A DNA stretch of 63,955 bases, filler included, from an uncultured bacterium (GCA_964372275.1; 4 parts of 4 records of this genome joined end to end with filler, not necessarily neighbours in it); one strand, 5' to 3'; shown: positions 3,582 to 46,975, counted from the whole stretch's first letter. Notes: a model not told the origin generated them from the sequence alone. Translations and numbers: made by a program.

Positions 3582-3965
3582 ATGAACGGACGGCCGACGC
3601 GCGAATGCGCGCCCGTGGCCCCTGCGAACTCCTGGGACTCCACCCTCCTGCTATACGACACGGCCCTCCAGGCCGCGTATCGGGCTGAGCAGGCAATTCG
3701 CCGCGGGGACGATGGCGACCGGCGCCAATGCCTTTCCCGAGCGCTCACGTGCGTGCGCGAGATCTCGGCGTCCGGAGACCTCGGCCTGACACCCGAGCGA
3801 CGCGCCCTTCGCGCGCGGATCCATTCGAGACTGACCGGCCTCCTCTTCACCGCAAACGCCGGCTCGGCGCTGGCCGCGTTGTCGACCGCCTCCCGGATCC
3901 TCGCCGTTCTGCGCGCAGGACACCTTTCCACGGACCGACAGCCGACATCCGCCCTCCTGCACTGA
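3582..3965 (+). CDS. Divergent FliS-like flagellin export chaperone
   Basis: 127 aa; LLYDTAL..A..AI..GD...LSRAL..V.EI...ANA...RIL..LR follows the FliS four-helix pattern; RBS GGAGA; lacks SLD and the C-terminal W. Confidence 0.65.
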   Translation: MNGRPTRECAPVAPANSWDSTLLLYDTALQAAYRAEQAIRRGDDGDRRQCLSRALTCVREISASGDLGLTPERRALRARIHSRLTGLLFTANAGSALAALSTASRILAVLRAGHLSTDRQPTSALLH

Positions 3966-4197
3966 AAGGAGCCGCCATGCCAATGACGCCACCGGGCACC
4001 GGACCGCCCGCCACCGCCTGACCGACTCACGCGGCACGCACATCGAGAACGCTCGCCACCCGAGGCACCCGATTCGCCACCGCCGCTCGAAGGCCGGCGG
4101 ACCGTTTCACCGGACGACGCGGGATCGACCGCCGAGACCGAAACCGAAACGCACCGAAGCGCGATGTCACGCAGGAACGGCGACCTCTCGGACTTTT

Positions 4198-4213
4198 AAC
4201 GAATCAATTAGTT
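4198..4213. promoter_or_regulatory. Candidate palindromic operator AACGAA-N4-TTAGTT
   Basis: Near-perfect inverted repeat in an AT-rich patch ~65 nt upstream of flagellin 4278. Confidence 0.5.
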
Positions 4214-4277
4214 CTTAAAACACGGACGGACCGAGCCCCCGGAAGGACCGGCGGGCCGGATCAAAGGGGAAATCGAA

Positions 4278-5114
4278 ATGTCCATCTTCATCAATTCGAA
4301 CCAGGCGAGCATCACCGCGCAACGAAGTCTCGCGGAGAGCACCCGACGCCTCGAGCGATCCGTCGCCCGACTGTCGAGCGGACTTCGCATCAATACCGGC
4401 GCGGACGACCCGGCCGGACTCGCGATCTCCGACAGACTCAAGGCGCAGATCCGGTCCTACCAGCAGGCGCAGCGGAACGGAGCCGACGCCGCCTCCCTGT
4501 CCGCGCTCGCGGACGGTCAAGCCGGCGAGATCACCGAACTGCTCGTCCGGATGCGCGAGCTTGCCGTCGAGGCGTTGAACGGCACCACCACGACAAGCGA
4601 CAGGGAAGCGCTCGACGAGGAGTACCAGGACCTGATCGACGAGATCGACCGCATTGCCAAGACCACCGAGTTCAACGGGATCAATCTCCTGGACGGAACG
4701 GTGAGCTCGATCGAGTTCCAGATCGGCATCGCGAGCGCCGCGGCCGATCGGATCAAGCTGAGCCTCACCGATCTCACCGTCTCGAGCGGCGGACTCGACG
4801 TCGGCTCGACGACCCTCGACGACACCGCCGCGAACATCCAGAACTACATCGACAAGATCGACACCGCCATCGACGAGGTGAGCAAGGCTCGCAGCAAGTT
4901 CGGAGGAACCTCCGCCCGCGTCGACTTCGCCCTCTCCGCCATTGGAACGCTCGTGCAGAACCTTTCGGCGGCGGAAAGTCGGATCCGCGATCTCGACATC
5001 GCGGCGGAGACCGCGGAGTTCGCGCGAAACCAACTGATGCAGGAGGCCGGCGTCGCGGTACTCGCCCAGGCGAACTCGCTCCCGGAGATCGCGATCTCGC
5101 TCCTTCGGTTCTAG
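4278..5114 (+). CDS. fliC: Flagellin, 278 aa (divergent, acidic)
   Basis: RLSSGLRIN..ADDPAG; TEFNGINLLDG; NLSAAESRIRDLD; AQANSLP..LLRF. Confidence 0.95.
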   Translation: MSIFINSNQASITAQRSLAESTRRLERSVARLSSGLRINTGADDPAGLAISDRLKAQIRSYQQAQRNGADAASLSALADGQAGEITELLVRMRELAVEALNGTTTTSDREALDEEYQDLIDEIDRIAKTTEFNGINLLDGTVSSIEFQIGIASAAADRIKLSLTDLTVSSGGLDVGSTTLDDTAANIQNYIDKIDTAIDEVSKARSKFGGTSARVDFALSAIGTLVQNLSAAESRIRDLDIAAETAEFARNQLMQEAGVAVLAQANSLPEIAISLLRF

Positions 5115-5472
5115 CCCCCCGCTTCCTGCGAAAACCGCTCCATTCCGTACGTGAACCTGATCGGACGAATGACCTTCGCCTCGCCGCCGTTCGCCGGGCA
5201 CGACCGATACGGGAGAGTTACCCCCTTTTCTCTCCCGCGGCGTGCCCGGCGGCCGGCGTCGAGGCGATGCCCTCGCGCAGCTTGCCGTCCGCCGTCGGCT
5301 TCCGGTCGAACTTCGCCTCGTCTTCGGAGTCGCGGCGCCGCCCGTGGGAAGTCACCCCCTTTCTTCCCCGCGGCGTCGCACTCCGGAGACGCGCCGACGG
5401 CCGCAGCGCCGTATCGCGGAAGACTCGTTGGACAACGTCGCACGGCGTCGCCGCCGTAGAGGTCCGCCGACC

Positions 5473-6303
5473 ATGAACGTGACCATTCGAACGAACGTCT
5501 ATTCGCTCGTCGCGCGTCGCAACATCGCCCAGGCCACACGCGATATCGAGCGCTCCGTCGAGAGACTCTCGTCCGGACTCCGCATCAACTCGGCCGCCGA
5601 CGACCCGTCGGGCCTTCGGATTGCTGACGGATTGAAGTCGAAGATCCGATCGCTGGAATCGGCGCGACGCAATGCCGAAGACGGAGTCTCGCTGACCGAC
5701 GTCGCGGACGGTACGCTCGACGAGGTGAACAACATGCTCACGCGAATGCGCGAGCTCGCCGTCGAATCTCTCAATGGCACGCTGTCCACCGACGACCGGG
5801 ACGTGCTCCAGGAGGAGTTCGACGACCTCCGCGACGAGATCGGCCGGCTCGCATCCACCACCGAGTTCAACGACATCGGTCTGCTGGACGGGCAGGTGAC
5901 GTCGGTCAAGATACACGTGGGCCATGATCCGGGCGCGGTCAATCGCGTCACCATCGAACTCGCCGACACCCGGGTCACCACGCTCGGGATCGCCACGATC
6001 ATGGTGAACGTCGGCACGACGGCGTCCGACACCGCTATCGACAAGCTGGACATCGCCATCGGAAAGGTCTCCGAAGCGCGCGGAAAGTTCGGGGCCGCCG
6101 CCTCCCGGCTCGAGGCTGCAGAGTCTTCGATCGATTCCCTTCTCGCCGGGTTCGGATCGGCGGAGAGCGCGATCCGGGACGCCGACATCGCCGCGGAGAC
6201 GGCCGACCTGGTCCGGTCGCAGATCATCCAGGAGGCCGGGATCGCGGTGCTGACCCAGTCGCAATCGATCTACAGGACGGCGCTGAAGTTGCTGTCGTTT
6301 TGA
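5473..6303 (+). CDS. fliC: Flagellin, 276 aa (most divergent copy)
   Basis: MNVTIRTN..RLSSGLRINSAADDPSG..RMRELAV..TEFND..AESAIRDAD..LLSF; ATG 5473 gives normal length. Confidence 0.93.
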   Translation: MNVTIRTNVYSLVARRNIAQATRDIERSVERLSSGLRINSAADDPSGLRIADGLKSKIRSLESARRNAEDGVSLTDVADGTLDEVNNMLTRMRELAVESLNGTLSTDDRDVLQEEFDDLRDEIGRLASTTEFNDIGLLDGQVTSVKIHVGHDPGAVNRVTIELADTRVTTLGIATIMVNVGTTASDTAIDKLDIAIGKVSEARGKFGAAASRLEAAESSIDSLLAGFGSAESAIRDADIAAETADLVRSQIIQEAGIAVLTQSQSIYRTALKLLSF

Positions 6304-6327
6304 ACCGCGGTCTACGATGCGTGGGTG

Positions 6328-7429: not shown

Positions 7430-8458
7430 GTGCGCTACTTCGAAGGAAAATCCGTCCTCATCACGGGCGGAACCGGGTCGCTCGGCAAGGCCCTCACCCG
7501 ACTGCTCCTTTCGGAAGCCCTCGTTCGGAAGCTGGTCATCTACAGCCGGGACGAATTGAAGCAGTTCGAGATGTCCCAGATGAAAGGGATCGGGGACGAC
7601 CGGAGGACGCGGTTCTTCCTCGGCGACGTCCGGGACCGGGACCGCCTGGCGCGGGCGTTCGAGGGCGTCGACATCGTGATCCACGCCGCGGCGCTGAAGC
7701 AGGTACCGGCCGCCGAATACAACCCGTTCGAGGCCGTGAAGACGAACATCATCGGCGCGCAGAACATCATCGACGCGGCGATCGATTGCCGTGTGCCGCG
7801 GGTGATCGCGCTCTCGACCGACAAGGCGGCGAACCCGGTCAACCTGTACGGGGCGACCAAGCTCTGTTCGGACAAGTTGTTCGTCGCCGGCAACGCCTAC
7901 GTCGGCGCCAACCAGACCCGGTTCGCGGTCGTCCGCTACGGAAACGTGGTCGGAAGCCGCGGAAGCGTCATCGGCCTGTTCCTCCGCATGCGGAACGAAT
8001 CGGTTCTCCCGATCACCGACGCCCGGATGACCCGATTCTGGATCACGATCGAGCACGCCGCGCGTTTCGTCGTCGACTGCGCGTGCAAGATGAGCGGCGG
8101 CGAGATCTTCGTGCCGAAGCTTCCGAGCACCAAGATCACCGACGTCGCCCGGGCGATCAACCCCAAGGCCCGGCACGAGATGATCGGGATCCGGCCGGGG
8201 GAGAAGCTGCACGAGGTGATGATCCCCGAGGACGACGCGCGCAAGGCGCTCGACATCGGCGATCGATACGTCGTCCTGCCCCCGCAGGAGTGGCGCGCGA
8301 CGGACCGCGAGTTTTCCGGAAAGCCGTGCCCGGAGGGATTCCGGTACGCGTCCGACGCCAACGAGAAGTGGCTCAATACCGAGGAGATCCGGAAGATGAT
8401 CGCCCTGCTCGACCTGCCCGATGCGAAGGAGTGGGCCAAGGAGCAGGGGCTCGCCTGA
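7430..8458 (+). CDS. pseB: UDP-N-acetylglucosamine 4,6-dehydratase (inverting)
   Basis: TGGTGSLG, YSRDELKQ, HAAALKQVPAAEYNPFE, LSTDKA.NP.NLYGATK, RYGNV.GSRGSV, GIRPGEKLHE. Confidence 0.93.
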   Translation: MRYFEGKSVLITGGTGSLGKALTRLLLSEALVRKLVIYSRDELKQFEMSQMKGIGDDRRTRFFLGDVRDRDRLARAFEGVDIVIHAAALKQVPAAEYNPFEAVKTNIIGAQNIIDAAIDCRVPRVIALSTDKAANPVNLYGATKLCSDKLFVAGNAYVGANQTRFAVVRYGNVVGSRGSVIGLFLRMRNESVLPITDARMTRFWITIEHAARFVVDCACKMSGGEIFVPKLPSTKITDVARAINPKARHEMIGIRPGEKLHEVMIPEDDARKALDIGDRYVVLPPQEWRATDREFSGKPCPEGFRYASDANEKWLNTEEIRKMIALLDLPDAKEWAKEQGLA

Positions 8459-8465
8459 ACCGACG

Positions 8466-9614
8466 ATGAAGCTTCCATACGGTCGCCAGCTGATCGACGA
8501 GGAGGACGTCCAGGCGGTCGTCGGCGTGCTGCGAGGCGACTGGTTGACCCAGGGTCCCGCGGTCGACCGGTTCGAGGAGGCGCTCGCGGCGTCGACGGGC
8601 GCGAGGCACGCGGTGGTCGTCGCCAACGGGACCGTCGCCCTCCACCTGGCCTGCCTCGCCGCCGGGCTCGGTCCCGGGGATGAGGGGATCACCTCGCCGA
8701 TCACGTTTGCCGCGAGCGCCAACGCCGTCGTCTACTGCGGCGGAACGCCGCGATTCGCCGACATCGACGCGGCGACCTGGAACATCGACCCACAAGCGCT
8801 GGCGGAGCGGATCAACAGCCGCACCAAGGTAGTGATCCCGGTCCACTTCGCCGGGCTTCCATGCGATCTACGCGCGATCCGCGAAACCGCCGACCGGACA
8901 GGTGCGGTGGTGGTGGCCGACGCCTGCCACGCGCTCGGCGCCGAGCTCGGCGGGAGCGCCATCGGTGGCACCGGGTTCGCGCAGATGACGTGCCTCTCCT
9001 TCCATCCGGTGAAGCACATCACCACCGGCGAAGGGGGCGCGGTCCTGACCGACGATCCCCTGCTCGCCAAGACCCTCCGCCGGCTCCGGCATCACGGGAT
9101 CGTCAACGATCCGGCGGAGATCGCCGCCGACCAGGGCGGCTGGTACCACGAGATCCAGGCGATCGGCTACAACGCGCGACTCACCGACCTCCAGTGCGCG
9201 CTCGGCACCAGTCAGCTCGCGAAGCTCCCGCGCTTCCTCGAGCGGCGGCGCGCCATCGCTGCGCGGTACCTCCGCGCGTTCGCCGACGTGCCAGGGCTGC
9301 GGACGCAGGCGCTCCCCGCCGGCCGCGCGCACGCCTACCATCTGTTCGTGGTGCACCTCGACCCGGCGAAACACGACCGGCGCCGCGTCTACGACCGGCT
9401 CCGGACGAATGGGATCTACAGCCAGGTGCACTACATCCCGGTCCACCTTCACCCGTTCTATCGCCGTACCTTCGGCTACCGTCCCGGCGATTTCCCCCAC
9501 GCGGAGCGGTACTACGCCGGTGCCTTGAGCTTGCCGATCTTCCCGGCGATGGGAGACGCCGACGTCGACACGGTGATCGGCGCGCTGCGGCAGGCTCTCG
9601 GGTCGAGCGCATGA
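8466..9614 (+). CDS. pseC: PLP-dependent UDP-sugar aminotransferase (DegT family, PseC type)
   Basis: LPYGRQ.I..ED, LTQGP, DACHALG, SFHPVKHITTGEGG, VHYIPVH; directly after pseB. Confidence 0.9.
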   Translation: MKLPYGRQLIDEEDVQAVVGVLRGDWLTQGPAVDRFEEALAASTGARHAVVVANGTVALHLACLAAGLGPGDEGITSPITFAASANAVVYCGGTPRFADIDAATWNIDPQALAERINSRTKVVIPVHFAGLPCDLRAIRETADRTGAVVVADACHALGAELGGSAIGGTGFAQMTCLSFHPVKHITTGEGGAVLTDDPLLAKTLRRLRHHGIVNDPAEIAADQGGWYHEIQAIGYNARLTDLQCALGTSQLAKLPRFLERRRAIAARYLRAFADVPGLRTQALPAGRAHAYHLFVVHLDPAKHDRRRVYDRLRTNGIYSQVHYIPVHLHPFYRRTFGYRPGDFPHAERYYAGALSLPIFPAMGDADVDTVIGALRQALGSSA

Positions 9615-16194: not shown

Positions 16195-16294
16195 NNNNNN
16201 NNNNNNNNNNNNNNNNNNNNNNNNNNNNNNNNNNNNNNTTAATTAATTAANNNNNNNNNNNNNNNNNNNNNNNNNNNNNNNNNNNNNNNNNNNN
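16195..16294. other. Artificial contig linker
   Basis: N44-TTAATTAATTAA-N44, stop codons in all six frames. Confidence 0.98.
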
Positions 16295-32542: not shown

Positions 32543-33369
32543 CCGTCACCGTAAACACCAACCTTGCCAGCATCACCGCCCAGAAGAACTTGGCCGTTAG
32601 CTCCGCGCGCCTGGAGACGTCGGTCATGAAGCTCTCCAGCGGCCTTCGAATCGCGGCCGCCAGCGATGATGCCGCCGGCCTGGTGATCTCGGAGAAGATG
32701 CGGGCCCAGATCCGGTCCCTCCAGCAGGCCCAGCGGAACGCGAACGACGGCGTCTCGCTCTCGAACACGGCAGACGGCGCACTCGGCGAGATCAGCGCCA
32801 TGCTCGTCCGCATGCGCGAGCTGGCAATTCAGTCACTGAACGGCACCAACGGAACCAGCGAACGTACCGCGCTGAACACTGAGTACACCTCCCTCCGGTC
32901 AGAAATCGACCGAATCTCGCAGGTCACGGCGTTCAACGGCGTCCTCCTGCTGAACGGTGGCGGTGGCGCGGTCGTGATCCAGGTCGGTGCGTTCACCACC
33001 AGCAACGACCGGATCTCGATCGCCGTCGTCGACACGACGGCCGGAGGCCTCGCCCTCGACACCACCTCGGTCGGAGGGACGATCAGCCAGACGAAAGTGG
33101 CGCTTGCGGCGGTCGACGATGCCATCTCCGACGTGAACTCCGCCCGCGGTAACTTCGGATCGTCCGTCAACCGGATGAACACTACGCTCGCGGCCCTGAG
33201 CAGCCTCGTCCAGAGCACGATCTCGGCGGAAAGCCGCATTCGAGACGCCGTCGTCGCGCAGGAGACCGCCGAGTTCACCCGGAACCAGGTCCTCCAAAGC
33301 GCCGGCATCTCGGTTCTGGCCCAAGCGAACACCCTCACCCAGGCGGCCCTCCAGCTCCTGCGCTTCTGA
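32543..33369 (+). CDS. fliC: Flagellin (subfamily C), missing only the first 1-2 codons
   Basis: [24 protein letters not shown] from 32545 through LQLLRF. Confidence 0.95.
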
Positions 33370-34028: not shown

Positions 34029-34856
34029 ATGGCGCTCACCGTAAATACCAACCTGGCCAGCATCACTGCTCAGAAGAATCTCGCCGTCAGCTCCCAGCGG
34101 CTCGAGTCTTCGGTCACCAAGCTTTCCAGCGGCCTCCGAATCGCGTCTGCGAGCGATGACGCAGCCGGACTGGTGATTTCGGAGAAGATGCGCGCCCAGA
34201 TTCGTTCTCTTCAGCAGGCCCAAAGAAACTCGAACGACGGTGTCTCCCTCGCAAACACCGCCGACGGAGCTCTCGGCGAAATCAGCGCAATGCTCGCCCG
34301 CATGCGAGAGCTTTCGATCCAGTCGCTGAACGGGACCAACGGTACGAGCGAGCGGACGGCGCTCAACACCGAGTACGTCTCCCTCCGGGCCGAAATCGAC
34401 CGGATTTCGCAGGTTACCGCCTTCAACGGCGTCTTCCTGCTCAACGGTGGGACGGCAGTCGTGATCCAGGTCGGTGCCTTCACCACCAGCAACGACCGAA
34501 TCTCGATCGCCGTCGTCGATACCACGGCCGGCGGTCTCGCCCTCGACACCACTTCGGTAGGCGGAACGATTTCCCAAACCAAAGCCGCGCTCGCCGCCGT
34601 CGACGACGCAATCTCCGACGTGAACTCGGCGCGTGGAAGTTTCGGGTCGGCCGTAAACCGTATGAATACCACGCTCGCCGCACTCAGCAGCCTGGTCCAA
34701 AGCACCATCTCTGCCGAGAGCCGGATCCGGGACGCCGACGTCGCATCCGAAACGGCGGAGTTCACGCGGAACCAGGTCCTTCAGAGCGCCGGCATCTCGG
34801 TACTCGCCCAGGCGAACACTCTCACCCAGGCGGCCCTTCAACTGCTCCGGTTCTGA
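34029..34856 (+). CDS. fliC: Flagellin, 275 aa (subfamily C)
   Basis: Full N/C motifs; RBS GAGGAG; close paralogue of 32543-33369. Confidence 0.97.
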   Translation: MALTVNTNLASITAQKNLAVSSQRLESSVTKLSSGLRIASASDDAAGLVISEKMRAQIRSLQQAQRNSNDGVSLANTADGALGEISAMLARMRELSIQSLNGTNGTSERTALNTEYVSLRAEIDRISQVTAFNGVFLLNGGTAVVIQVGAFTTSNDRISIAVVDTTAGGLALDTTSVGGTISQTKAALAAVDDAISDVNSARGSFGSAVNRMNTTLAALSSLVQSTISAESRIRDADVASETAEFTRNQVLQSAGISVLAQANTLTQAALQLLRF

Positions 34857-35439: not shown

Positions 35440-36264
35440 ATGGCCCTTCTGATCAACACCAACCTCGCCAGCATCAACGCCCAGCGGAATCTCGCCTTCA
35501 ACACGAAGCGCCTCGAAAACTCCATCGGAAAGCTCTCGAGCGGTCTCCGGATCGCAAGTGCCAGCGACGACGCCGCCGGACTCTCGATCTCGGAGAAGTT
35601 CCGTGCCGAGATCCGATCGCTGCAGCAGGCCGAGCGAAACGCCAGTGACGGCATTTCTCTCGCGAACACGGCGGAAGGCGCCCTCTCCGAGGTGAGCTCC
35701 ATGCTGGTCCGGATGCGTGAGCTCGCAGTCCAATCGCTGAACGGCACGAACGGCACCAGCGAACGTCAAACCATGGATTCCGAATTCCAGACCCTCAAGG
35801 CGGAGATCAAGCGACTCGCCGAAGCCACCACCTTCAACTCGATCAAGATCCTCGCTGGTGCCGCGGCCACCGTCCTGCAGGTCGGAGCATCGAGCACCGC
35901 AAACGACACCATCTCCATTGCGGCGGTCAACGTCCGGCTGTCGGCCCTCGGACTGTCGAACACCGGGATCAGCGCGGCACTCGATGCCGGGGCCGCGCTC
36001 GGCGACCTGGACAGCGCGATCTCCACGGTGAACGGGTACCGGGGCCAGTTCGGCGCGGCCGCGAACCGAATCAACACCACGCTGGCGACCCTCACCAGCC
36101 GGATCCAGAACGTCATCGGCGCCGAGAGCCGGATCCGGGACGTCGACGTCGCACTCGAGACGGCGGAGTTCACGCGCGCCCAGATCCAGCAACAGGCCGG
36201 CGTCGCCATCCTCGGCCAGGCAAATACGCTCGCCCAGGCCGCGCTCCAACTTCTCCGGTTCTGA
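35440..36264 (+). CDS. fliC: Flagellin, 274 aa (subfamily D)
   Basis: Full N/C motifs; RBS AAGGAG. Confidence 0.97.
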   Translation: MALLINTNLASINAQRNLAFNTKRLENSIGKLSSGLRIASASDDAAGLSISEKFRAEIRSLQQAERNASDGISLANTAEGALSEVSSMLVRMRELAVQSLNGTNGTSERQTMDSEFQTLKAEIKRLAEATTFNSIKILAGAAATVLQVGASSTANDTISIAAVNVRLSALGLSNTGISAALDAGAALGDLDSAISTVNGYRGQFGAAANRINTTLATLTSRIQNVIGAESRIRDVDVALETAEFTRAQIQQQAGVAILGQANTLAQAALQLLRF

Positions 36265-36300: not shown

Positions 36301-37125
36301 ATGGCCCTCCTGATCAACACGAACCTCGCCAGTCTCAACGCCCAACGCAACCTCGCGTTCAACACCAAGAGGCTCGAGACGTCGATCGGCAAGCTCTCGA
36401 GCGGGCTACGGATCGCGAACGCGGCCGATGACGCGGCGGGACTGTCGATCTCCGAGCGGTTCAGGGCCGAAATACGATCCCTCCAGCAGGCCGAGCGGAA
36501 TGCGAGCGACGGAATCTCCCTCGCCAACACGGCCGAGGGCGCCCTCTCCGAAGTGAGCGCGATGCTCGTCCGGATGCGCGAGCTCGCGATCCAGTCACTC
36601 AACGGAACGAACGGAACGAGCGAACGGCAGACGATGGACTCCGAATTCCAGACCCTCAAGTCCGAGATCAAGCGGCTGGCCGAGGCGACGACATTCAACT
36701 CGATCAAGATCCTCGCCGGTGCCGCTGCGACGGTGCTCCAGGTCGGAGCGACGAGCACCGCGAATGACACGATTTCGATCGCGGCCGTGAACGTGCGCCT
36801 CTCGTCCCTCGGCCTTTCGAATACCACGATCAGCAACGCAACCGATTCCGGAGTCGCGGTCGGAGATCTCGACGACGCGATCTCGACGGTGAACGGATTC
36901 CGCGGCCAGTTCGGCGCCGCCGCGAACCGGATCAACACGACGCTCGCGACCCTCACCAGCCGGATCCAAAACGTGATCGGCGCCGAGAGCCGAATCCGAG
37001 ACGTCGACGTCGCCATCGAGACCGCCGAGTTCACGCGCGCCCAGGTCCAGCAGCAGGCAGGCGTCTCGATCCTCAGCCAGGCGAACACGCTTGCCCAGGC
37101 CGCCCTGCAACTCCTCCGCTTCTGA
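36301..37125 (+). CDS. fliC: Flagellin, 274 aa (subfamily D)
   Basis: Full N/C motifs; RBS GAGGAG; close paralogue of 35440. Confidence 0.97.
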   Translation: MALLINTNLASLNAQRNLAFNTKRLETSIGKLSSGLRIANAADDAAGLSISERFRAEIRSLQQAERNASDGISLANTAEGALSEVSAMLVRMRELAIQSLNGTNGTSERQTMDSEFQTLKSEIKRLAEATTFNSIKILAGAAATVLQVGATSTANDTISIAAVNVRLSSLGLSNTTISNATDSGVAVGDLDDAISTVNGFRGQFGAAANRINTTLATLTSRIQNVIGAESRIRDVDVAIETAEFTRAQVQQQAGVSILSQANTLAQAALQLLRF

Positions 37126-37535
37126 TGACGACGCGACCGCCGACAATCACGGGACATCACCTGAACCGCACCTCCCAGCTGCCTGGAAACGAACCTCCCC
37201 GACGCAACTTCCGGCGATCGCGCCTCCGGTTGCTCGACGAAACCCTGTCCGCGGTCGCGGCGCTGCGCAATGCCCGCCTCCGCGCGGATCGAGCCGACGG
37301 CGCGGAGCGTTACGCCTTCGCCGCGTCGCTGGTCCAGGAGCTTTTCGAGGACGCCGACACGTCGACCGCCGACAGGGAACTTGCGGCGAGCTACCGGTCG
37401 GTCCTCCTTCACCTCGCGAACGGCTTCGCCGCCGGTTCGGCCGCATCGTTCGCGACTGCCGAGCGCATCCTGCACGCCCTCCGCGCAACGTGCTTCGAGT
37501 CACCTCGATTCGGGCCCCACTCGACGACCTCCTGA
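37125..37535 (+). CDS. Highly divergent FliS-like protein
   Basis: TGATG coupling to the flagellin; LLDETL..A..LVQEL...D....ELA..Y...HL..G...AERILHALR has the same spacing as the other FliS paralogues. Confidence 0.5.
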   Translation: MTTRPPTITGHHLNRTSQLPGNEPPRRNFRRSRLRLLDETLSAVAALRNARLRADRADGAERYAFAASLVQELFEDADTSTADRELAASYRSVLLHLANGFAAGSAASFATAERILHALRATCFESPRFGPHSTTS

Positions 37536-37573
37536 TCCCGCCCGACCGATCCCCACCTACGAACCCCGAGAGA

Positions 37574-37589
37574 AACTAATGTTTTCGTT
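37574..37589. promoter_or_regulatory. Candidate palindromic operator AACTAA-N4-TTCGTT
   Basis: Near-perfect IR ~100 nt upstream of flagellin 37689. Confidence 0.5.
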
Positions 37590-37688
37590 CAACCAACCCC
37601 CGAGCGGAACACGATCGGTCGGACGTCCGGGCCCCGGAAGCCGAGAGCCCGCCAAGACTTCGAACTAACCACCCCAGGGAGAAGACAC

Positions 37689-38525
37689 ATGGCCATCACG
37701 ATCAACAACAACGTCGCGAGTCTCATTGCCCAGCGGAACCTCTCGCGCAACTCCAACCGCCTCGAAGGCTCGATCGGCCGCCTTACCAGTGGCCTGAGGA
37801 TCGCGGTCGCTTCGGACGACGCCGCCGGTCTCGCGATCTCCGAGAAGATGCGCGCCAGGATCCGGTCGCTCCAGCAGGCCCAACGGAACGCCGCCGACGG
37901 CATCTCGCTCGCGAACACCGCCGAAGGCGCGATGAACGAGATCAGCGGAATGCTCGTCCGGATGCGCGAGCTCGGCATGCAGGCCGCAAACGGCTCGACG
38001 GACCAGGAGCAGCGGGACGCCCTCAACGACGAGTTCCAGCTGCTCCTCGAGGAGATCCAGCGTATCGCGGAGTCGACCGAGTTCAACGGGGTTCCGCTTC
38101 TCGACGGGGGCGGCAGCACCGTGGACTTCCAGGTCGGTGCGGAGACCGACCCGACGAACCGGATCACCATCAGCGCCGTCGACATGACGATCACGACCGG
38201 ACTTTCGCTCGACGGCCGAAACATCAACGCCGCCAACGTGAGCGACATTCGCACCACCGTGGACAAGGTCGACGCGGCGATCACCACGGTCAACTCGGCG
38301 CGCGGCAAGTTCGGTGCGGTCGTCAATCGGATGTCGGCGACCGTCGCGATCGTCGGCTCCATGTTGCAGAACGTGATCGAGACGGAGAGCCGAATCCGCG
38401 ACGTCGACGTCGCGCTCGAGACTTCCGAAATGATGAAGGCGCAGGTCCTCCAGCAAGCCGGCATGGCGGTCCTCGCACAAGCCAACTCGCTGACCCAGAA
38501 CGCCCTCCAGCTCCTTCGATTCTAG
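37689..38525 (+). CDS. fliC: Flagellin, 278 aa (subfamily E)
   Basis: Full N/C motifs; QAANG..DQEQRDAL; INAANVS. Confidence 0.96.
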   Translation: MAITINNNVASLIAQRNLSRNSNRLEGSIGRLTSGLRIAVASDDAAGLAISEKMRARIRSLQQAQRNAADGISLANTAEGAMNEISGMLVRMRELGMQAANGSTDQEQRDALNDEFQLLLEEIQRIAESTEFNGVPLLDGGGSTVDFQVGAETDPTNRITISAVDMTITTGLSLDGRNINAANVSDIRTTVDKVDAAITTVNSARGKFGAVVNRMSATVAIVGSMLQNVIETESRIRDVDVALETSEMMKAQVLQQAGMAVLAQANSLTQNALQLLRF

Positions 38526-38566
38526 GATCCAACGCCTCCCAACGCCTCGTACCCACGGACCGAGCC

Positions 38567-38953
38567 ATGAACGGACACGCAACCTACTTCGACGACTCAT
38601 TGACCACCCGGACACCCGAGGGACTCGTCGTCGTGCTCCTCGACGGCGCGCTGAAAGCGATCTATCGGTCCCACCTCGCCATCCGGGCCGGTGACACGAG
38701 GGCTCGCAGCAGAAACGTCTCCCGCGCACTCGACTTCGTGCACGCACTGGCGCTTTCGCTCGATCCGGCGCCCGATCCGGTCTTCGTCGCGCGGCTGCAC
38801 GGTCTCTACGCGACGGTCGGGCAACTGCTCCTCGACGCCGATGCCCACGGCCGGGTGGAACCATTGGCCGCATGCGCCCGGATTCTCGCGAATCTTCGAG
38901 AGGGCTGGTGCCGCTTGTCCGCGATCCGCAACACCCACTCGGTCCAGAACTGA
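38567..38953 (+). CDS. fliS: FliS-family flagellin export chaperone
   Basis: Y....T.TPE.LVV.LLDGAL..I...AI..GD..VSRA...LSLD..RL..LY..LL.A..RIL.NLREGW. Confidence 0.82.
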   Translation: MNGHATYFDDSLTTRTPEGLVVVLLDGALKAIYRSHLAIRAGDTRARSRNVSRALDFVHALALSLDPAPDPVFVARLHGLYATVGQLLLDADAHGRVEPLAACARILANLREGWCRLSAIRNTHSVQN

Positions 38954-38977
38954 CAGTCCCGCTTCCAGGAGCCCATC

Positions 38978-39664
38978 ATGAACGTCACCTCGACCACGCC
39001 CCGCCCCCTGGCACTGACGCGTCGCGCGAGCCGACTGGATCGCTCGCTCGCGACCCGGCTCGGCGAGCGCCGTTCGAAAATCACGCGTCCCGACGTCACC
39101 CGGCCCGACGCCGATCTGCGGGACGACCGTGACCGCCAAAGACTCCTCGGCGCTCTCGGTTCCCAGCGTTCGGTCAACGGAGCGATCTCCGCCATCCACG
39201 ACGCGATCGACACCTTCGAAGCGCTGATTTACCACGTCGAAGAATCGCGGAACTCGCCGGTCGACCTCCGGAATGTCCTTGCCGGCTCGATCGCGTCGGC
39301 ACGCGAAATCGACCTTCATCTTCTCGAAGAGCTGCCGCTTCCGACGAACGCCGGCCCGCTGCTCACAATCCTCTCCGCCTCGGTTCATGTCCTACGTTCG
39401 GCCGATCCAACCGACGTCAACCCGACCATACTCCACCGGCTCCAAGCCTCGTCGACGTCCGGACTGACCGCCGCCCGACAGCTGTCCGCCGCGCTCGCCG
39501 CCCACGCCGACGCGATTGCCGGCCGACTCAGCCGGTTCTTCGAACCGATCGACCCCGCGGCCTCCGACCGCATCCGGGAAATCCTCATCGCCCAACGGGC
39601 AACCGCAATCATGGCCCAGGCCAATGCCGCGCCGTCCGCAGCGCTGACGTTGCTGCGGTTCTGA
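38978..39664 (+). CDS. Degenerate flagellin-like protein, 228 aa
   Basis: RBS CAGGAG; RLDRSLATRL and QRSVNGAISA echo flagellin N-terminal helices; ends AIMAQANAAPSAALTLLRF; lacks SSGLRI and ESRIRD. Confidence 0.7.
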   Translation: MNVTSTTPRPLALTRRASRLDRSLATRLGERRSKITRPDVTRPDADLRDDRDRQRLLGALGSQRSVNGAISAIHDAIDTFEALIYHVEESRNSPVDLRNVLAGSIASAREIDLHLLEELPLPTNAGPLLTILSASVHVLRSADPTDVNPTILHRLQASSTSGLTAARQLSAALAAHADAIAGRLSRFFEPIDPAASDRIREILIAQRATAIMAQANAAPSAALTLLRF

Positions 39665-39707
39665 GGCGCCGCACGCCGACCGACCGACCTTTCAAGAAGG
39701 AGCCGTC

Positions 39708-40541
39708 ATGGCACTCACGATCAACACCAATCTCGCGAGCATCACCGCACAGCGGAATCTCGCGTACAGCTCCCGCCGGCTCGAAAGCTCCGTCAGCCGC
39801 CTCTCGAGCGGCCTTCGGATCGCCACGGCCGCCGACGATGCAGCCGGCCTCTCGATCTCGGAACGGATGAGGGCGCAGATCCGGTCGCTGCAACAGGCGC
39901 AGAGGAACGCCAACGACGGGATCTCCCTGGCAAATACGGCCGACGGCGCCCTGAACGAGATCAGCGCGATGCTCATTCGCATGCGCGAGCTCGCCGTTCA
40001 GTCCCTGAACGGCACGAGCGCCACCGCCGAGCAGAACGCGCTCAATACCGAGTTCCAGGGCCTCATCGACGAGATCGATCGTGTCGCGAAGACGACGACG
40101 TTCGCCGGGGTCAAGATCCTCGACGGCTCGCTCGTCGACGGCATGGACTTCCAGGTCGGAACCGGCACCGGGTCGGTCGACCGGGTGAACGTTTCCGTCG
40201 CCGCGGCGACTGCGAGCCAGCTGCTGATCTCCGGAACCGATATCAACACCGACGGCGACACGACTCGCGCTGCGATCATCCAGGTAGATGGCGCCATCGA
40301 CAAGATCAACGCAGCCCGGAGCCGGTTCGGCGCCGTCGTCAACCGGATGAGCTCGACGATCTCGACGATCGCCGCGGTCCTTCAGAACACGATCGCGACC
40401 GAGAGCCGGATCCGTGATGTCGACATCGCGACCGAAACCGCCGAGTTCGCGCGCGCGCAGGTCCTCCAACAGGCCGGCGTCGCGATCCTGGCCCAGGCGA
40501 ACACGATCACGCAGTCCGCACTGGCCCTCCTCCGATTCTGA
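39708..40541 (+). CDS. fliC: Flagellin, 277 aa (subfamily F)
   Basis: Full N/C motifs; [16 protein letters not shown]. Confidence 0.97.
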   Translation: MALTINTNLASITAQRNLAYSSRRLESSVSRLSSGLRIATAADDAAGLSISERMRAQIRSLQQAQRNANDGISLANTADGALNEISAMLIRMRELAVQSLNGTSATAEQNALNTEFQGLIDEIDRVAKTTTFAGVKILDGSLVDGMDFQVGTGTGSVDRVNVSVAAATASQLLISGTDINTDGDTTRAAIIQVDGAIDKINAARSRFGAVVNRMSSTISTIAAVLQNTIATESRIRDVDIATETAEFARAQVLQQAGVAILAQANTITQSALALLRF

Positions 40542-40680: not shown

Positions 40681-41508
40681 ATGGCCATCACCGTGAACAC
40701 CAACGTCGCCAGCATCACCGCGCAGCGAAATCTCTCCCTCAACTCGCGCCGTCTCGAGGGCTCAATCTCGAAGCTGTCGAGCGGCCTCCGGATCGCGACC
40801 GCAGCCGACGACTCGGCGGGGTTGGCGATCTCCGAGAAGATGCGAGCCCGTATCCGCTCCCTCCAGCAGGCGCAACGGAACGCGGCGGACGGCGTTTCGC
40901 TCGCGAACACCGCGGACGGCGCGCTGAACGAGATCAGCGGCATGCTCGTCCGGATGCGCGAGCTCGCCGTTCAGGCGGTCAACGGCACCAGCGACCAGGA
41001 TCAACGCAATGCGCTCGACGCCGAGTTCCAGTCGCTTCTCGATGAGATCACTAGAGTCTCCAGATCCACCGTCTTCAATGACATCAAGCTTCTGAACGGC
41101 TCCACCACGGTGGTCTTCCAGGTCGGAAGCGAAGTCTCCGTCGATTCGCGCATCACCGTCACGCCGATCGATACCACGCTCACCACGCTCGGCCTGGACG
41201 GCGAAGCGATCAACGGGACGGCGACCGACATCCGCACGGCGATGACCGCGATCGATTCGGCCGTGGACGACGTCAACGCCGCCCGAAGCAAGGTCGGCGC
41301 GGTCGTCAACCGCATGAGCACCACGGTCTCGATCGTCGGAAGCCTCATCCAGAACACCATCGCGACCGAAAGCCGCATCCGGGACGCCGACGTCGCCGTC
41401 GAAACCGCCGAATTCACCCGCGCTCAGGTCTTGCAGCAGGCCGGAGTCGCCGTCCTCGCGCAAGCGAACTCGATCACCCAGGCAGCCTTGCAGCTGCTTC
41501 GGTTCTGA
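40681..41508 (+). CDS. fliC: Flagellin, 275 aa (subfamily E)
   Basis: Full N/C motifs; RBS AAGGAG. Confidence 0.97.
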
Positions 41509-41550: not shown

Positions 41551-42378
41551 ATGGCCGTCACCGTGAACACGAACGTCGCGAGCATCACGGCACAGCGCAA
41601 CCTCTCGATGAACTCCCGGCGACTCGAGAGCTCGATCTCGAAGTTGTCGAGCGGACTTCGCATCGCCAGCGCCGCGGACGACTCGGCCGGTCTGGCGATT
41701 TCCGAAAAGATGCGCGCGCGTATCCGCTCCCTGCAGCAAGCACAGCGGAACGCCGCGGACGGGGTCTCCCTTGCGAACACGGCCGACGGTGCTCTGAACG
41801 AGATCAGCGCGATGCTCGTGCGCATGCGGGAACTCGCGGTTCAGGCGGTGAACGGCACGAGCGACCAGGACCAACGGGACGCGCTCGACGCCGAGTTCCA
41901 GTCCCTCCTGGAGGAAGTCGCCCGGGTTTCGAAGTCGACCGTCTTCAACGACATCAAGCTCCTCAACGGCTCGAACACCGTGGTCTTCCAGGTCGGCAGC
42001 GAAACGTCCGTCGATTCCCGCATCACGGTAACGCCGATCGATACGACGGTCACGACCCTCGGTCTGGACGGCGAGGCGATCAACGGCTCGGCCGGAGCAA
42101 TTCGGAACGCCATGACGGCGCTCGACACGGCGATCGACAGCGTCAACGCGGCCCGGAGCAAGGTCGGCGCCGTCGTGAACCGGATGAGCACCACGGTATC
42201 GATCGTCGGAAGCCTGATCCAGAACACCATCGCCACCGAGAGCCGCATTCGAGACGCCGACGTCGCGGTGGAGACCGCCGAATTCACCCGAGCACAGGTC
42301 CTCCAGCAAGCGGGAGTCTCGGTTCTCGCGCAGGCCAACTCGATCACGCAGGCCGCTCTCCAGCTCCTCCGCTTCTAG
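41551..42378 (+). CDS. fliC: Flagellin, 275 aa (subfamily E)
   Basis: Full N/C motifs; RBS GAGGAG. Confidence 0.97.
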
Positions 42379-42414: not shown

Positions 42415-43242
42415 ATGGCCGTCACCGTCAACACCAACGTCGCGAGCATCACCGCCCAGCGGAACCTCTCGCAGAACACCCGCCGGCTCGAGAGCTCGAT
42501 CGCGAAGCTCTCCAGCGGACTGCGAATCGCATCCGCCGCAGACGACTCGGCCGGACTGGCGATCTCCGAGAAGATGCGCGCTCGCATCCGGTCGCTCCAG
42601 CAGGCCCAACGGAACGCGTCCGACGGGGTCTCGCTCGCGAACACGGCCGACGGCGCCCTGAACGAGATCAGCGCGATGCTCGTCCGGATGCGCGAGCTGG
42701 CGGTTCAAGCCGTGAACGGCACCAGCGATCAAGATCAGCGGGACGCGCTCGACGCCGAGTTCCAGTCACTCCTCGACGAGATCGCGCGGGTCGCGAAGTC
42801 GACCGTCTTCAACGATTTGAAGTTGCTGAACGGCACCAACACCGTCGTCTTTCAGGTCGGAAGCGAGACGTCGACCGACTCCCGCATCACCGTCACCCCC
42901 GTCGACATGACGGTCACCACGCTCGGACTTGACGGTGAGGCGATCAACGGTTCCGCCGGCGCCATCCGCGCCGCCATGACGGCCATCGACGGCGCCATCG
43001 ATGCCGTCAATGCCGGGCGCAGCAAGTTCGGTGCGGTCGTGAACCGCATGAGCACGACGGTCTCAATCCTCGGAAGCCTGATCCAAAGCACGATCGCGAC
43101 CGAGAGTCGCATACGCGACGCGGACGTGGCGGCGGAGACCGCCGAGTTCACCCGCGCGCAGGTCCTCCAGCAGGCCGGCGTCTCCGTCCTCGCGCAGGCC
43201 AACGCCACGACCCAGGCGGCGCTCCAGCTCCTTCGATACTGA
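42415..43242 (+). CDS. fliC: Flagellin, 275 aa (subfamily E)
   Basis: Full N/C motifs; ends LLRY. Confidence 0.97.
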
Positions 43243-43292: not shown

Positions 43293-44123
43293 ATGGCACT
43301 CATCGTGAACACCAACATCGCCAGTATCAACGCGCAGCGCCACCTCGCCGCGAACACTCGCCGACTGGAGGGCGCGATCGGCCGGCTCTCGAGCGGACTC
43401 CGGATCACCGGAGCCGCCGAAGACTCCGCCGGCCTCGCGATCTCCGAGAAGATGCGCGCCAAGATCCGCTCGCTCCAGCAAGCACAGCGAAACGCGTCGG
43501 ACGGTATTTCACTCGCCCATACCGCCGACGGGGCCATGAATGAAATCAGCGCAATGCTCGTCCGGATGCGCGAGCTCGCCGTACAGGCCGCCAACGGCAC
43601 GAGCGATCAGGACCAACGGGACGCGTTGAACGACGAGTACCAGTCGCTCTTGAGCGAGATTCAACGGGTTGCCCAGTCCACCGTCTTCAACAACATCGAG
43701 CTCCTGAACGGCGGCAGCGCGGTTGTGTTCCAGGTCGGTAGCGAGACCTCGACGATCGACCGCATCAGCGTCGGTGTCGTCGACATGAAGATCACCGCGC
43801 TCGGCGTCGACGGAACGGTAATCAACGCCGCCAATGTGAGCGTCATTCGCGATTCGATCAATGCAGTCGATGCCGCGATCACCGAGGTAAACGAGGCGCG
43901 CAGCCAGTTCGGAGCCGCGGTGAACCGGATGACGACGACGGTCTCGATCCTCGGCAGTCTGGTCCAGAACACGATCGCCGCCGAGAGCCGCATCCGGGAT
44001 GCCGACGTCGCGATCGAGACGGCCGAGTTCACGCGAGCCCAGGTCCTGCAGCAGGCCGGCGTCTCCGTACTCGCCCAAGCCAATTCGATCACGCAGTCCG
44101 CGCTTCAGCTGCTCCGGTTCTAG
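43293..44123 (+). CDS. fliC: Flagellin, 276 aa (subfamily E)
   Basis: Full N/C motifs; shares QAANG, ALNDE and INAANVS with 37689. Confidence 0.97.
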   Translation: MALIVNTNIASINAQRHLAANTRRLEGAIGRLSSGLRITGAAEDSAGLAISEKMRAKIRSLQQAQRNASDGISLAHTADGAMNEISAMLVRMRELAVQAANGTSDQDQRDALNDEYQSLLSEIQRVAQSTVFNNIELLNGGSAVVFQVGSETSTIDRISVGVVDMKITALGVDGTVINAANVSVIRDSINAVDAAITEVNEARSQFGAAVNRMTTTVSILGSLVQNTIAAESRIRDADVAIETAEFTRAQVLQQAGVSVLAQANSITQSALQLLRF

Positions 44124-44277: not shown

Positions 44278-44658
44278 ATGAACGACAAGATTCACATCGA
44301 GGATGAAGCAGAGGTGGAGTCCCCGGTTCGGCTGATCGTCGACCACTACGACGCCGCGCTCAAGGCGATCTACCGCGCGCACGTTGCCCACGAAAGAGGA
44401 GATCGAATCACGAGGGGCAAGGCGGTATCCCAGGCGCTCGCGATACTTCAGGAACTCACGCAGTCGTTGGATCCGCTTCCCGCCCCGCGGCTCGTCCGCC
44501 GGCTCATCGAGCTCTATCTCTGGACCGGCCAGCTCCTCGTCGAAGCAAACGTTTTCGACGACGGTGGAAACCTCGCGAAGGCGGCAAGGATCCTGTCCAC
44601 CTTGCGAAGCGGCTGGAGCGACCTCCACGACCGGATGCGTTCCGAGACCCGCCAGTGA
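44278..44658 (+). CDS. fliS: FliS-family flagellin export chaperone
   Basis: SP.RLIV..YDAAL..I..A....GD...AVSQA..ILQEL..SLD..L.ELY..LL.EAN..RIL.TLRSGW; alternative in-frame ATG at 44182. Confidence 0.85.
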   Translation: MNDKIHIEDEAEVESPVRLIVDHYDAALKAIYRAHVAHERGDRITRGKAVSQALAILQELTQSLDPLPAPRLVRRLIELYLWTGQLLVEANVFDDGGNLAKAARILSTLRSGWSDLHDRMRSETRQ

Positions 44659-44687: not shown

Positions 44688-45386
44688 ATGCACCTCACGA
44701 TTTCGAGATCGTTGCTCCTGGAGAACCCCCGCGAGACGGTGCGTCCCGCGGAGCGCCGGTCGCCCGCGACACCCGCGGCGGGCGCGGACTCGGGCGGCTC
44801 CCGACCTGCCCCCGACCGGAGGAGCAGCTCCGAACGAGCCCCTCGACCGTCGCGCACCATCCGCCTACTGCAAGACGAACTGCGTGGCGCAAACGAGGCG
44901 CTCTCGATCGCTTCCTCGACTGCGACCGAGCTCGATCTCCTTCGATCGAACGACTCGATCGATCGCTCGGCGGTGGCGTCCACGATCCGTGAGGTCGTGG
45001 CGGCCGCGATCCGCCGCCTCGCCGATCTCGAAGCGGGCAGAACGGACGCACCCGCATCCGCTGCCCGGTCCGAATGGGTCGCGCTTCTCGGGACCGCGTT
45101 GCGCGCTGCCGAGGAGACGTTCAACCAATCCGGCGACCCTTCGGCGGCTCGGGCCCAGGCCCTCGCGACCACACTTCGAAAGATCGAGCGGGAGGCCGGG
45201 TTGGCCGCCGGACGGATCGCCCGCGACATCAACGACCGAATTTCCGAGCAGGGCTCCAGCGGAGCTCCAGACGACGAACCCACTCCCGAACGGACCCGCC
45301 ATCGAATGGTCCTCCAGCGGTCGGCCGCCGTGCTCGCCCAGGCCAACGCCGCGGCAGTCTCCGCCGTCAGTCTCCTTCGATTCTGA
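44688..45386 (+). CDS. Degenerate flagellin-like protein, 232 aa
   Basis: RBS AGGAAGGA; MHLTIS start; IRLLQDELRGANEALSIA resembles [18 protein letters not shown]; ends AVLAQANAAAVSAVSLLRF. Confidence 0.7.
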   Translation: MHLTISRSLLLENPRETVRPAERRSPATPAAGADSGGSRPAPDRRSSSERAPRPSRTIRLLQDELRGANEALSIASSTATELDLLRSNDSIDRSAVASTIREVVAAAIRRLADLEAGRTDAPASAARSEWVALLGTALRAAEETFNQSGDPSAARAQALATTLRKIEREAGLAAGRIARDINDRISEQGSSGAPDDEPTPERTRHRMVLQRSAAVLAQANAAAVSAVSLLRF

Positions 45387-45431
45387 CCGGCGACCCGGCC
45401 CGCCGCAGAACTTCTCGCCCAAGGAGCAACC

Positions 45432-46268
45432 ATGGCACTCATCGTCTCCAACAACTTCGCCGCACTCAGCGCCCAGCGAAACCTCGCCAATACGTCGAGA
45501 CGACTGGAGAACTCGATCAGCCGGCTCTCCAGCGGTCTCCGCGTGGCGACCGCGGCCGACGACGCCGCCGGCCTCTCGATCTCGGAGCGTATGCGTGCAC
45601 AGATCCGCTCGCTCCAACAGGCGCAACGCAACGCCAACGACGGAATCTCCATGGCCAACACCGCGGACGGCGCGCTCAATGAGATCAGCGCCATGTTGAT
45701 CCGGATGCGGGAGCTCGCGATCCAGTCGTTGAACGGAACCAGCGGAACCGCGGAACGAAACGCGCTCGACGCCGAATACCAGGGTCTCGTCGACGAGATC
45801 GATCGTGTCGCCAAGACCACCACGTTCATGGGGGCGAAGATTCTGGACGGCAGCATGGTCGTAAACGGAATCGAATTCCAAGTCGGCCCAGGAACCACGT
45901 CCAACGACCGGATCCTCGTTTCGGGAGCCGCCGCGACGGCGAGCCAGCTGCTTCTCTCCGGCACGGACATCAATACCGATATCGATACCACCAAGGCCGC
46001 GATCACGCAGGTAGACGGCGCGATCGACAAGGTCAACGCGACCCGAAGCCGGTTCGGTGCGGTCGCGAACCGGATGAACGCAACGATCACCAGCATTGCC
46101 ACGGTGCTGCAGAACCAGATGGCGACTGAGAGCCGCATCCGCGATGTCGACGTCGCGGCCGAAACCGCCGAATTCGCGCGGCTCCAGGTGCTGCAACAGG
46201 CCGGTGTCGCCGTCCTGGCGCAGGCGAACACGCTGACCCAGTCCGCACTCTCCCTGCTCCGGTTCTAG
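45432..46268 (+). CDS. fliC: Flagellin, 278 aa (subfamily F)
   Basis: Full N/C motifs; close paralogue of 39708. Confidence 0.97.
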
Positions 46269-46313
46269 CCGTCGACGGCAGCATCGAACCGCACACACAC
46301 ACGAGGTGAAACC

Positions 46314-46538
46314 ATGCTCGATCCGATCGTCGCACCCGCTCGGCAGCCATCGCGCAGGATCTTCCGGCTGGAGCTCGAAGCGCCCTCGACCGAATCGGTA
46401 CCACCCGGCGAGACCGTCCCCTGGACGCGCCTCGCGGCGGAGGCCGGCTCAGAGCTCGCCCGCGATGCGGCCGCGGCTGTGGCCGTCCAATCGTCCGGAC
46501 TGACCGCCTCCTCCTGGTCCTTGCTCGCGTTCGAGTGA
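46314..46538 (+). CDS. 74-aa small protein resembling only the flagellin C-terminal tail
   Basis: RBS GAGGTG; AAAAVAVQSSGLTASSWSLLAF aligns to [22 protein letters not shown]. Confidence 0.55.
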   Translation: MLDPIVAPARQPSRRIFRLELEAPSTESVPPGETVPWTRLAAEAGSELARDAAAAVAVQSSGLTASSWSLLAFE

Positions 46539-46573
46539 TTTCCGAAACACCGATCGAGCCCCGGAGAACTCTC

Positions 46574-46975
46574 ATGAACGGATACGACCGCTACCTGGAA
46601 ACCGACGTCGCGACCCGATCGCCATTGTCGATCGTGATTGCGCTCTACGACGGAGCGCTACGCGCCCTCGGACTCGCGCGGTCCTCGACCGATCGGTTCT
46701 CCCTCGGACGCTACGCCTGCCGCGCGAACCTGATCGTAGGGGAGCTCGCGGCTTCGCTCGACGAAAAGGCGGCGCCCGAGATGTCCAGTTCCTTGCACCG
46801 GCTCTACACCACCGTGTCCGCGTTGATCGTCGACGGAAGCGAGCGCGGTGATCCCAAGCCATTGGAGGAGGCCGCACGGATCCTCACCGTCTTGCGACGC
46901 GGTTGGGCGTCGATTCCCAACGCCAGCGGATCGCCGGACCCGAGATCGAGACCGCCGTCGCGCGGAGGTGGCTGA
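46574..46975 (+). CDS. fliS: FliS-family flagellin export chaperone (most canonical copy)
   Basis: MNGYDRY....V.T.SP...VI.LYDGALR.L..A; RA..IV.EL..SLD; L..LY; LEE...IL..LR.GW; RBS GGAGA. Confidence 0.88.
   Translation: MNGYDRYLETDVATRSPLSIVIALYDGALRALGLARSSTDRFSLGRYACRANLIVGELAASLDEKAAPEMSSSLHRLYTTVSALIVDGSERGDPKPLEEAARILTVLRRGWASIPNASGSPDPRSRPPSRGGG

Follow-up and report, generated by a model that had tools for sequence, protein, structure and literature searches.

FliS is an export chaperone that binds the C-terminal helix of flagellin, and in bacteria with several flagellins the work so far on how subunits are chosen points to transcription, FliW, CsrA and FlaG. FliS proteins of known structure (1ORY, 5MAW, 6CH3 and 3IQC, from Aquifex, Bacillus, Salmonella and Helicobacter) are about 125 residues long and form a four-helix bundle. 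Helix 1 of FliS docks in the cleft of FlhA-C through Ile7, Tyr10 and Val13, and in the same work Tyr10 is essential for binding to FlhA-C and for the ternary complex and is termed absolutely conserved (Xing et al., PMC5932034). Here, we describe FliS-like open reading frames (ORFs) between positions 3582 and 46975 of a 63,955-base stretch of DNA (the window) from the draft genome of an uncultured bacterium (GCA_964372275.1), which an earlier prediction had described as five divergent FliS paralogues distributed through a flagellin gene array.

The closest described arrangement is that of the magnetotactic cocci MO-1 and MC-1, which are reported to carry 14 and 15 flagellin genes, as of 2020 the largest flagellin sets on record, and two fliS genes (PMC7175107). 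The genome studied here resembles them in its tandem arrays of many flagellin paralogues and in having more than one fliS, and the glycosylation of the MO-1 and MC-1 flagellins is counted as a further common point. It differs in that their two fliS genes lie in a compact flgKL-fliD cluster and not at the ends of flagellin blocks, and in its numbers, which are 22 for flagellin ORFs or fragments and nine for FliS-like genes. FliS is also duplicated in Pseudomonas aeruginosa and Clostridioides difficile, but a single second copy (FliS2) is named there, which makes two copies only. Two other proteins are related in setting or in action. GlfM is described as a small, helical protein that resembles FliS and acts in flagellin glycosylation. 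FlaG of Campylobacter jejuni, reported as an antagonist of FliS-flagellin docking on FlhA (PMC11536152), offers a precedent, from an unrelated protein, for the docking step as a point at which filament make-up or length is controlled.

Compared with the known FliS, the proteins encoded here are of similar length (about 125 residues) and predicted four-helix fold, six of the nine keep the conserved core, and their genes lie next to flagellin or fliD genes. Unlike them, they come in nine copies instead of one, five lack an equivalent of Tyr10 and three fall outside the conservation range of 71 FliS from other organisms.

Results

Membership and size of the FliS family

ORFs are named by w and their start position within the window, and assembly contigs by C and a number. 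The five ORFs are all present at the expected coordinates and all lie on the plus strand: w3582 (3582..3965; 127 amino acids), w37125 (37125..37535; 136 amino acids, or 124 if codon 13 is the start), w38567 (38567..38953; 128 amino acids), w44278 (44278..44658; 126 amino acids) and w46574 (46574..46975; 133 amino acids). Judged by profile score, w38567, w44278 and w46574 are clear FliS proteins, since at 69.8, 71.4 and 67.1 bits they pass the gathering cut-off (26.7 bits) of the Pfam FliS model, PF02561. The fourth, w3582, scores just below that cut-off (26.1 bits, and 25.4 bits in the genome scan), and the most divergent, w37125, has no Pfam or NCBIfam match.

Membership of the two weak copies was established with profiles. 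A leave-one-out profile, built from the other eight paralogues and run against the genome's 35,532 ORFs (60 codons or longer), recovered w3582 at 62.3 bits (E 8e-17) and w37125 at 27.3 bits (E 6e-6); in the search for w37125, the highest-scoring noise ORF reached 12 bits. Alignment with hhalign to the 71 outside FliS gave a probability of 97.9% for w3582 (E 5e-13, 111 columns) and of 71% for w37125 (E 3.7e-5, 94 columns, helices 1-4 in register). Searches of solved structures with w3582 or w37125 as single sequences returned only chance helical matches (TAL repeats, ornithine carbamoyltransferase); a profile built from the nine paralogues together finds solved FliS chains (E 2.6e-15). The third codon position has the highest G+C (GC3) in all nine FliS ORFs. 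The best match in the genome to the FliT model (PF05400), at 15.8 bits, is on C107 and is none of the FliS-like ORFs.

All five ORFs are FliS family members, although the strength of the evidence differs greatly among them, and five is too low a count. A PF02561 scan of the whole assembly found eight places, three on C103, one on C101 (w3582, below the cut-off) and four on C148, and with w37125 the family has nine members, four on C103, four on C148 and one on C101; a profile of these nine run against the 35,532 ORFs found no tenth. On the minus strand of C148 the order is flgK, flgL, a Maf-like gene, fliD, FliS (100.6 bits), flagellin, a weak FliS (32.7 bits), FliS (67 bits), flagellin and FliS (100 bits), so that one copy directly follows fliD. 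Since the two top scorers, at about 100 bits each, both sit on C148, w46574 is not the canonical extreme that it had been taken for.

That FliS is usually single-copy, as the original prediction assumed, was borne out by a survey of 400 other genomes across the bacterial domain with the same Pfam model at E <= 1e-5, in which matches are not strictly gene counts: 154 had a match, with one in 141, two in 12 and a maximum of three in a single genome. The present assembly has seven matches at that threshold. Tandem FliS pairs were seen in two of the 400 genomes (G155:C11:6000-6705 and G310:C18:23385-24092), and a protein of 374 amino acids from another source, a representative library (P0014), contains three tandem FliS-like stretches, a triple FliS fusion. 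In literature searches, no genome with FliS in more than two or three copies came up.

The assembly holds 22 flagellin ORFs or fragments, 20 of them complete or short of two codons only and two cut by contig ends; 19 of the 22 are inside the window and the others are on C148 and C87. For the export gate, a single FHIPEP/FlhA match was found. Profiles of FliT, FliW and FlaG (PF03646) had no match in the assembly and only a weak FlgN-like match was seen, absences that are not proof because the assembly is 94.6% complete.

Conserved positions and the docking tyrosine

We defined the conserved core as the 15 alignment columns that are at least 85% conserved in the 71 outside FliS, which themselves keep 10 to 15 of these columns (median 14). 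Among the paralogues, w44278, w46574 and C148 1524 keep 14, C148 2830 keeps 12, and w38567 and C148 5445 keep 11. The remaining three are w37125 and C148 3496, with seven each, and w3582, with five, so the description of w3582 and w37125 as barely recognisable was apt. The equivalents of Tyr10, Tyr103 and Trp136 are missing from w3582, which is without the invariant tyrosine (71 of 71 outside FliS) and the tryptophan (68 of 71); w37125 lacks the tryptophan as well.

The Tyr10 column holds a tyrosine in 62 of the 71 outside FliS and in four of the nine paralogues, namely w38567, w46574 and two copies on C148, which leaves two of the five window copies with it. Elsewhere it is replaced by arginine (w3582), asparagine (w37125), histidine (w44278) or alanine (C148 3496), or falls in a gap (C148 2830). 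In w44278, it is the only one of the 15 columns that has been lost.

Placement of FliS at the ends of flagellin blocks

In the flagellin tree, each FliS of the window closes a run of flagellins of one clade, in line with the predicted location at or near block ends; all genes of these blocks are on the plus strand. On C101, w3582 ends a block of three or more clade-A genes, formed by w3 (3..626, cut by the contig start and covering profile positions 70-276), w935 (935..1765), w1833 (1833..2663) and, directly upstream, w2715 (2715..3545); it starts 36 nucleotides (nt) past the flagellin stop and has a GGAGA ribosome-binding site. The other four are on C103. There, w37125 follows the clade-D pair w35440 (35440..36264) and w36301 (36301..37125), and its ATG overlaps the stop of the latter as TGATG. 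A single flagellin of clade E, w37689 (37689..38525), precedes w38567 by 41 nt. A run of four clade-E genes, w40681 (40681..41508), w41551 (41551..42378), w42415 (42415..43242) and w43293 (43293..44123), ends in w44278 after 154 nt. Lastly, w46574, again with a GGAGA ribosome-binding site, lies 305 nt after w45432 (45432..46268), which shares a clade with w39708 (39708..40541), and upstream of the clade-A genes w47045 (47045..47878) and w48130 (48130..48536, an N-terminal part cut by the end of C103). The tight spacing suggests that each FliS is co-expressed with its own block. Scans for sigma-70 promoters and terminators found sites no more frequent than in shuffled sequence.

The remaining flagellins of the window are the divergent w4278 (4278..5114) and w5473 (5473..6303) on C101, which pair with each other, and, on C103, w32545 (32545..33369, lacking its first two codons at the contig start) and w34029 (34029..34856), which group together and are followed by a gap of 583 nt and no FliS. 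A small open frame of about 75 codons (46313-46540) fills most of the gap between w45432 and w46574. An apparent giant flagellin at 48130 was rejected, being a flagellin cut by the contig end and followed by a spacer and an unrelated contig, as were the Arg/Pro-rich ORFs w6300-7418, w33423-34025 and several on C148, which are wrong-frame products.

Predicted fold and origin of the divergent copies

AlphaFold2 models of the two weakest window copies, built with an 80-row FliS alignment, are four-helix bundles. For w3582, the predicted local distance difference test (pLDDT) was 87 and the predicted template modelling score (pTM) 0.76, and for w37125 they were 84 and 0.71, with the first 26 residues modelled as disordered. 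Foldseek placed solved FliS chains at ranks 1-10 for w3582, with three more among the next five ranks listed (best match 5maw_E, E 1.5e-4, template modelling score [TM] 0.87, root-mean-square deviation [rmsd] 1.7 Å, 107 columns), and at the top nine ranks for w37125 (best match 6gow_E, E 1e-3, TM 0.80, rmsd 1.5 Å, 96 columns); across the solved FliS chains, target-normalised TM was 0.80-0.90 and rmsd 1.3-2.4 Å. VIA, an aligner independent of Foldseek, also put FliS first for w37125 (3iqc_A, Z 14.9), followed by generic four-helix bundles, both designed and unrelated, at Z 12-13, up to 13.3. For both proteins, the predicted models are consistent with the FliS fold yet do not discriminate.

In a tree of the nine paralogues and the 71 outside FliS, made from only 137 alignment columns, the nine and two outside sequences, P0009 and P0010, split from the other 69 with a support of 99 in the Shimodaira-Hasegawa-like approximate likelihood ratio test (SH-aLRT). 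Grouping in a single clade suggests that the family grew within one lineage and was not imported repeatedly. Branches inside this clade are long and radiate as a star (2.7 for w37125 and 1.2-1.9 for w3582). The nine are 18-46% identical in pairwise comparison (median 31%), and in a library made from about 15 billion proteins seven of them each represent a separate 50% cluster.

Two orphan proteins with flagellin-like tails

Two proteins encoded directly after FliS genes on C103, on the plus strand, end in a flagellin-like C-terminal tail. The first (38978..39664; 228 amino acids) starts 24 nt after w38567, and the second (44688..45386; 232 amino acids from an ATG with a AGGAAGGA site, although a GTG at 44655 is possible) follows w44278. 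Both ORFs have good ribosome-binding sites, neither protein has a Pfam or NCBIfam match, and they are related to each other only over the last 39 residues, where they are 46% identical. A pattern for the flagellin tail was found in 21 of the 35,532 ORFs, which are 19 flagellins and these two orphans. A homologue search with the first returned nothing besides itself; a feature search with the second gave leads only, its nearest clusters being without names and one set having a minority of Flagellin_N members. Because FliS binds the C-terminal helix of flagellin, the two orphans are candidate FliS clients or decoys.

Structure of the window and source organism

Exact matching to the assembly showed that the window is made of four draft contigs joined by runs of N. 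C101 (1-16194) carries flagellin genes in its left third; C102 (16295-32442) carries purine-synthesis, polyphosphatase and other housekeeping genes, with no flagellar gene among those annotated; C103 (32543-48536) is flagellin region throughout; and C108 (48637-63955) encodes a giant protein of the Big_9/cadherin type and has a gap of 100 N of its own (52680-52779). The spacers between contigs occupy 16195-16294, 32443-32542 and 48537-48636, and since they join concatenated contigs, neighbourhood across them is not real. The span from 3582 to 46975, which had been read as a single array, crosses two of them and the unrelated contig C102.

C101 and C103 start or stop within flagellin genes, as is expected where an assembler breaks in repeats. 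There are no exact end overlaps between them, and the truncated flagellins that close C103 and open C101 are only 91% identical over an overlap of 197 nt, so that they are different genes and the two contigs cannot simply be joined. Nevertheless, the clade-A flagellins at both ends would fit C103 running on into C101 through unassembled copies.

The assembly as a whole comprises 4.64 Mb in 225 contigs and is estimated to be 1.29% contaminated. The N-terminal 686 residues of its RpoB (contig C190) are at most 71% identical to any match, the best being Cystobacter fuscus and a Myxococcales metagenome-assembled genome, and the species set compared contained no other genome of the same phylum. Judged by RpoB, the organism would be a flagellated lineage near the myxobacteria.

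Neighbouring genes

Downstream of the C101 flagellins lie, on the plus strand (7430..9614), genes for a pseB-like dehydratase and a pseC-like aminotransferase, of a flagellin sugar pathway. Between them and the last C101 flagellin, an ORF of 362 amino acids (6325-7413) has coding-like GC3 and only weak NCBIfam matches, to glycosylhydrolase and neuraminidase models; it may encode a sugar-modifying enzyme of the flagellin glycosylation set. An open frame of 823 amino acids (8861-11332) overlaps the pseC-like gene in a different frame and matches FapA and FapA_N (flagellar assembly protein A) at residues 336-784; as the match is confined to those residues, the start of the gene is probably further in. 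It is followed by FG-GAP/ASPIC, histidine-methyltransferase-like and LpxR-like genes. On C108, open frames of 1395 and more than 4600 amino acids (48641-63955, the latter running past the window end) contain Big_9 and cadherin-like domains and belong to a giant repetitive surface protein with no relation to the flagellin loci.

Discussion

The explanation that we consider somewhat probable is that duplicated flagellin-plus-FliS modules feed one export gate, and that the copies without the docking tyrosine act as non-docking holders or regulators. The five ORFs of the window would then be part of a nine-gene, lineage-specific FliS family serving at least 22 flagellin ORFs or fragments. The evolutionary unit would be a flagellin with the FliS downstream of it, a module that was duplicated and in which the flagellin was afterwards amplified in tandem. 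The copies with the full signature (w38567, w46574 and two on C148) would most likely be ordinary export chaperones that use their conserved N-terminal tyrosine to dock on FlhA and bind flagellin at its C-terminal helix. The copies without it (w3582, w37125, w44278 and two on C148) have most likely kept the four-helix bundle and lost standard docking; they may hold or titrate the flagellins of their own block in the cytoplasm and so bias which of them reach the single gate. Starting from the observed family membership, copy number, block-end placement and residue losses, we infer binding, block specificity, non-docking and any regulatory effect.

Several points weigh against this explanation. 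At five and seven of 15 conserved positions, w3582 and w37125 are below the minimum of 10 seen in the outside FliS, and they may not bind flagellin at all. The outside FliS are themselves the top of a search seeded with these nine sequences, so that both the clade and the conservation counts lean toward canonical and similar proteins. The star-like FliS tree means that co-divergence with the flagellins cannot be shown. The AlphaFold2 models are biased toward the FliS fold because the alignment used for folding consisted of FliS. An intact reading frame is weak evidence in this genome, because long stop-free runs are common in it: 67% of six-frame codon positions lie in stop-free runs of at least 127 codons. 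The assembly is a draft of 225 unordered contigs. Finally, flagellin paralogues share a median of 77% identity over their last 45 alignment columns, compared with 31% among the FliS paralogues, and with tails so uniform, differing clade-wise at few positions, there is little left for block-specific recognition. A predicted complex of w37125 (residues 20-136) with the tail (residues 195-274) of the flagellin upstream of it scored 0.01, which counts neither way.

The uniformity of the tails also speaks for simple dosage, in which interchangeable FliS copies multiplied to supply some twenty flagellins and diverged by the ordinary drift of a fast-evolving small helical protein. The FliS of unrelated bacteria, too, are only about 30-40% identical to each other, and six of the nine copies hold 11-14 of the 15 conserved positions. 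However, loss of the FlhA-docking tyrosine from five of the nine is unexpected for interchangeable export chaperones, the conserved placement at block ends suggests ties to particular flagellins, and stronger expression of one gene would have been a simpler route to the same end. We regard dosage as an unlikely explanation. A bolder form of the modular explanation, which we also hold to be unlikely, gives the two tail-bearing orphans a part in it: FliS copies with the tyrosine would deliver the flagellins of their block, and those without it, together with the orphans, would act as cytoplasmic holders, decoys or competitors, so that the order and proportions of about twenty flagellins are set. 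If true, filaments of many flagellins would be governed by a sorting code at the level of chaperones.

It is also possible, if rather improbable, that the most divergent copies (w3582, w37125 and C148 3496-3179) are decaying, functionless relics of module duplication. Their five, seven and seven conserved positions are under those of every one of the 71 outside FliS, they have the longest branches (1.9-2.8), and open frames are cheap in this genome. Relatives of w37125 are scarce: a search of 5.8 billion proteins gave only a 98% identical copy, of 124 residues and thus matching a start at codon 13, and metagenome scans with w37125 gave no match. Other scans of the same kind returned distant loci at most. 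With an alignment of four FliS, a metagenome scan found nine, all with a single FliS and no more than one clear flagellin plus one weak flagellin-profile match, and a genome-contig scan with a C148 FliS found none. The proposed comparison of non-synonymous with synonymous substitution rates (dN/dS) found no orthologues on which it could be run.

Variation between strains carries little weight here. Contigs of four public runs compared with 36301-39700 showed four differences in w37125 and one in w38567. The four in w37125 come from one strain contig (1008 nt, one run), fall in codons 6-17 (37140-37174), that is, all within the first 17 codons, and all change the residue, as relics would allow. 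One of them turns codon 13 from CTG into ATG, which makes the start of w37125 uncertain and its leader variable. In the second strain, w37125 has the same helical core, which would argue against decay, but the flanking DNA is identical too. Also against decay, homology is kept in one frame and in register over four helices. We infer that neutral decay to this degree should have brought frameshifts, and that a divergence so deep without one would be hard to reach by neutral drift. The GC3 pattern is retained as well, and translation signals are kept, with a good ribosome-binding site for w3582 and start-stop coupling of w37125 to a flagellin gene.

A further explanation is that the divergent FliS-like proteins are adaptors of the GlfM type, bridging a Maf glycosyltransferase to flagellin for glycosylation with pseudaminic acid. 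GlfM, which has a conserved Asp77, is described as a predicted four-helix bundle of 89 residues that HHpred likens to FliS or FliT and that Maf-2 requires (bioRxiv 10.1101/2023.12.03.569772). In favour of this role, pseB- and pseC-like genes are present 3.5 kb past w3582, and Maf-like genes occur twice in the genome, once on C148 between flgL and fliD and once on C24. However, the gene for GlfM is reported to adjoin maf-2, and no FliS-like ORF of the window adjoins a Maf gene. The two divergent window proteins are 127-136 amino acids long, compared with about 89, and are likened to GlfM by description and not by sequence. We regard this explanation as very improbable. Inflation of the count by strain variants or foreign contigs, in a draft of 225 contigs that break within flagellin genes and with several runs holding near-identical strains, is barely credible, because paralogues that are 18-46% identical are not strain variants, C103 and C148 carry four copies each, the nine form a single clade with the two outside sequences and the contamination estimate is low.

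How bacteria with many flagellins choose the subunits of a filament and their amounts is an open question. The flagellin and FliS gene counts of the genome described here exceed the highest that we found in print, and this large flagellar gene set belongs to a lineage whose RpoB is closest to those of myxobacteria. FliS variants that lack the docking tyrosine occur naturally in this genome, and with blocks of flagellins paired with very different FliS copies and apparently one export gate, a chaperone-level answer to that question becomes directly testable.

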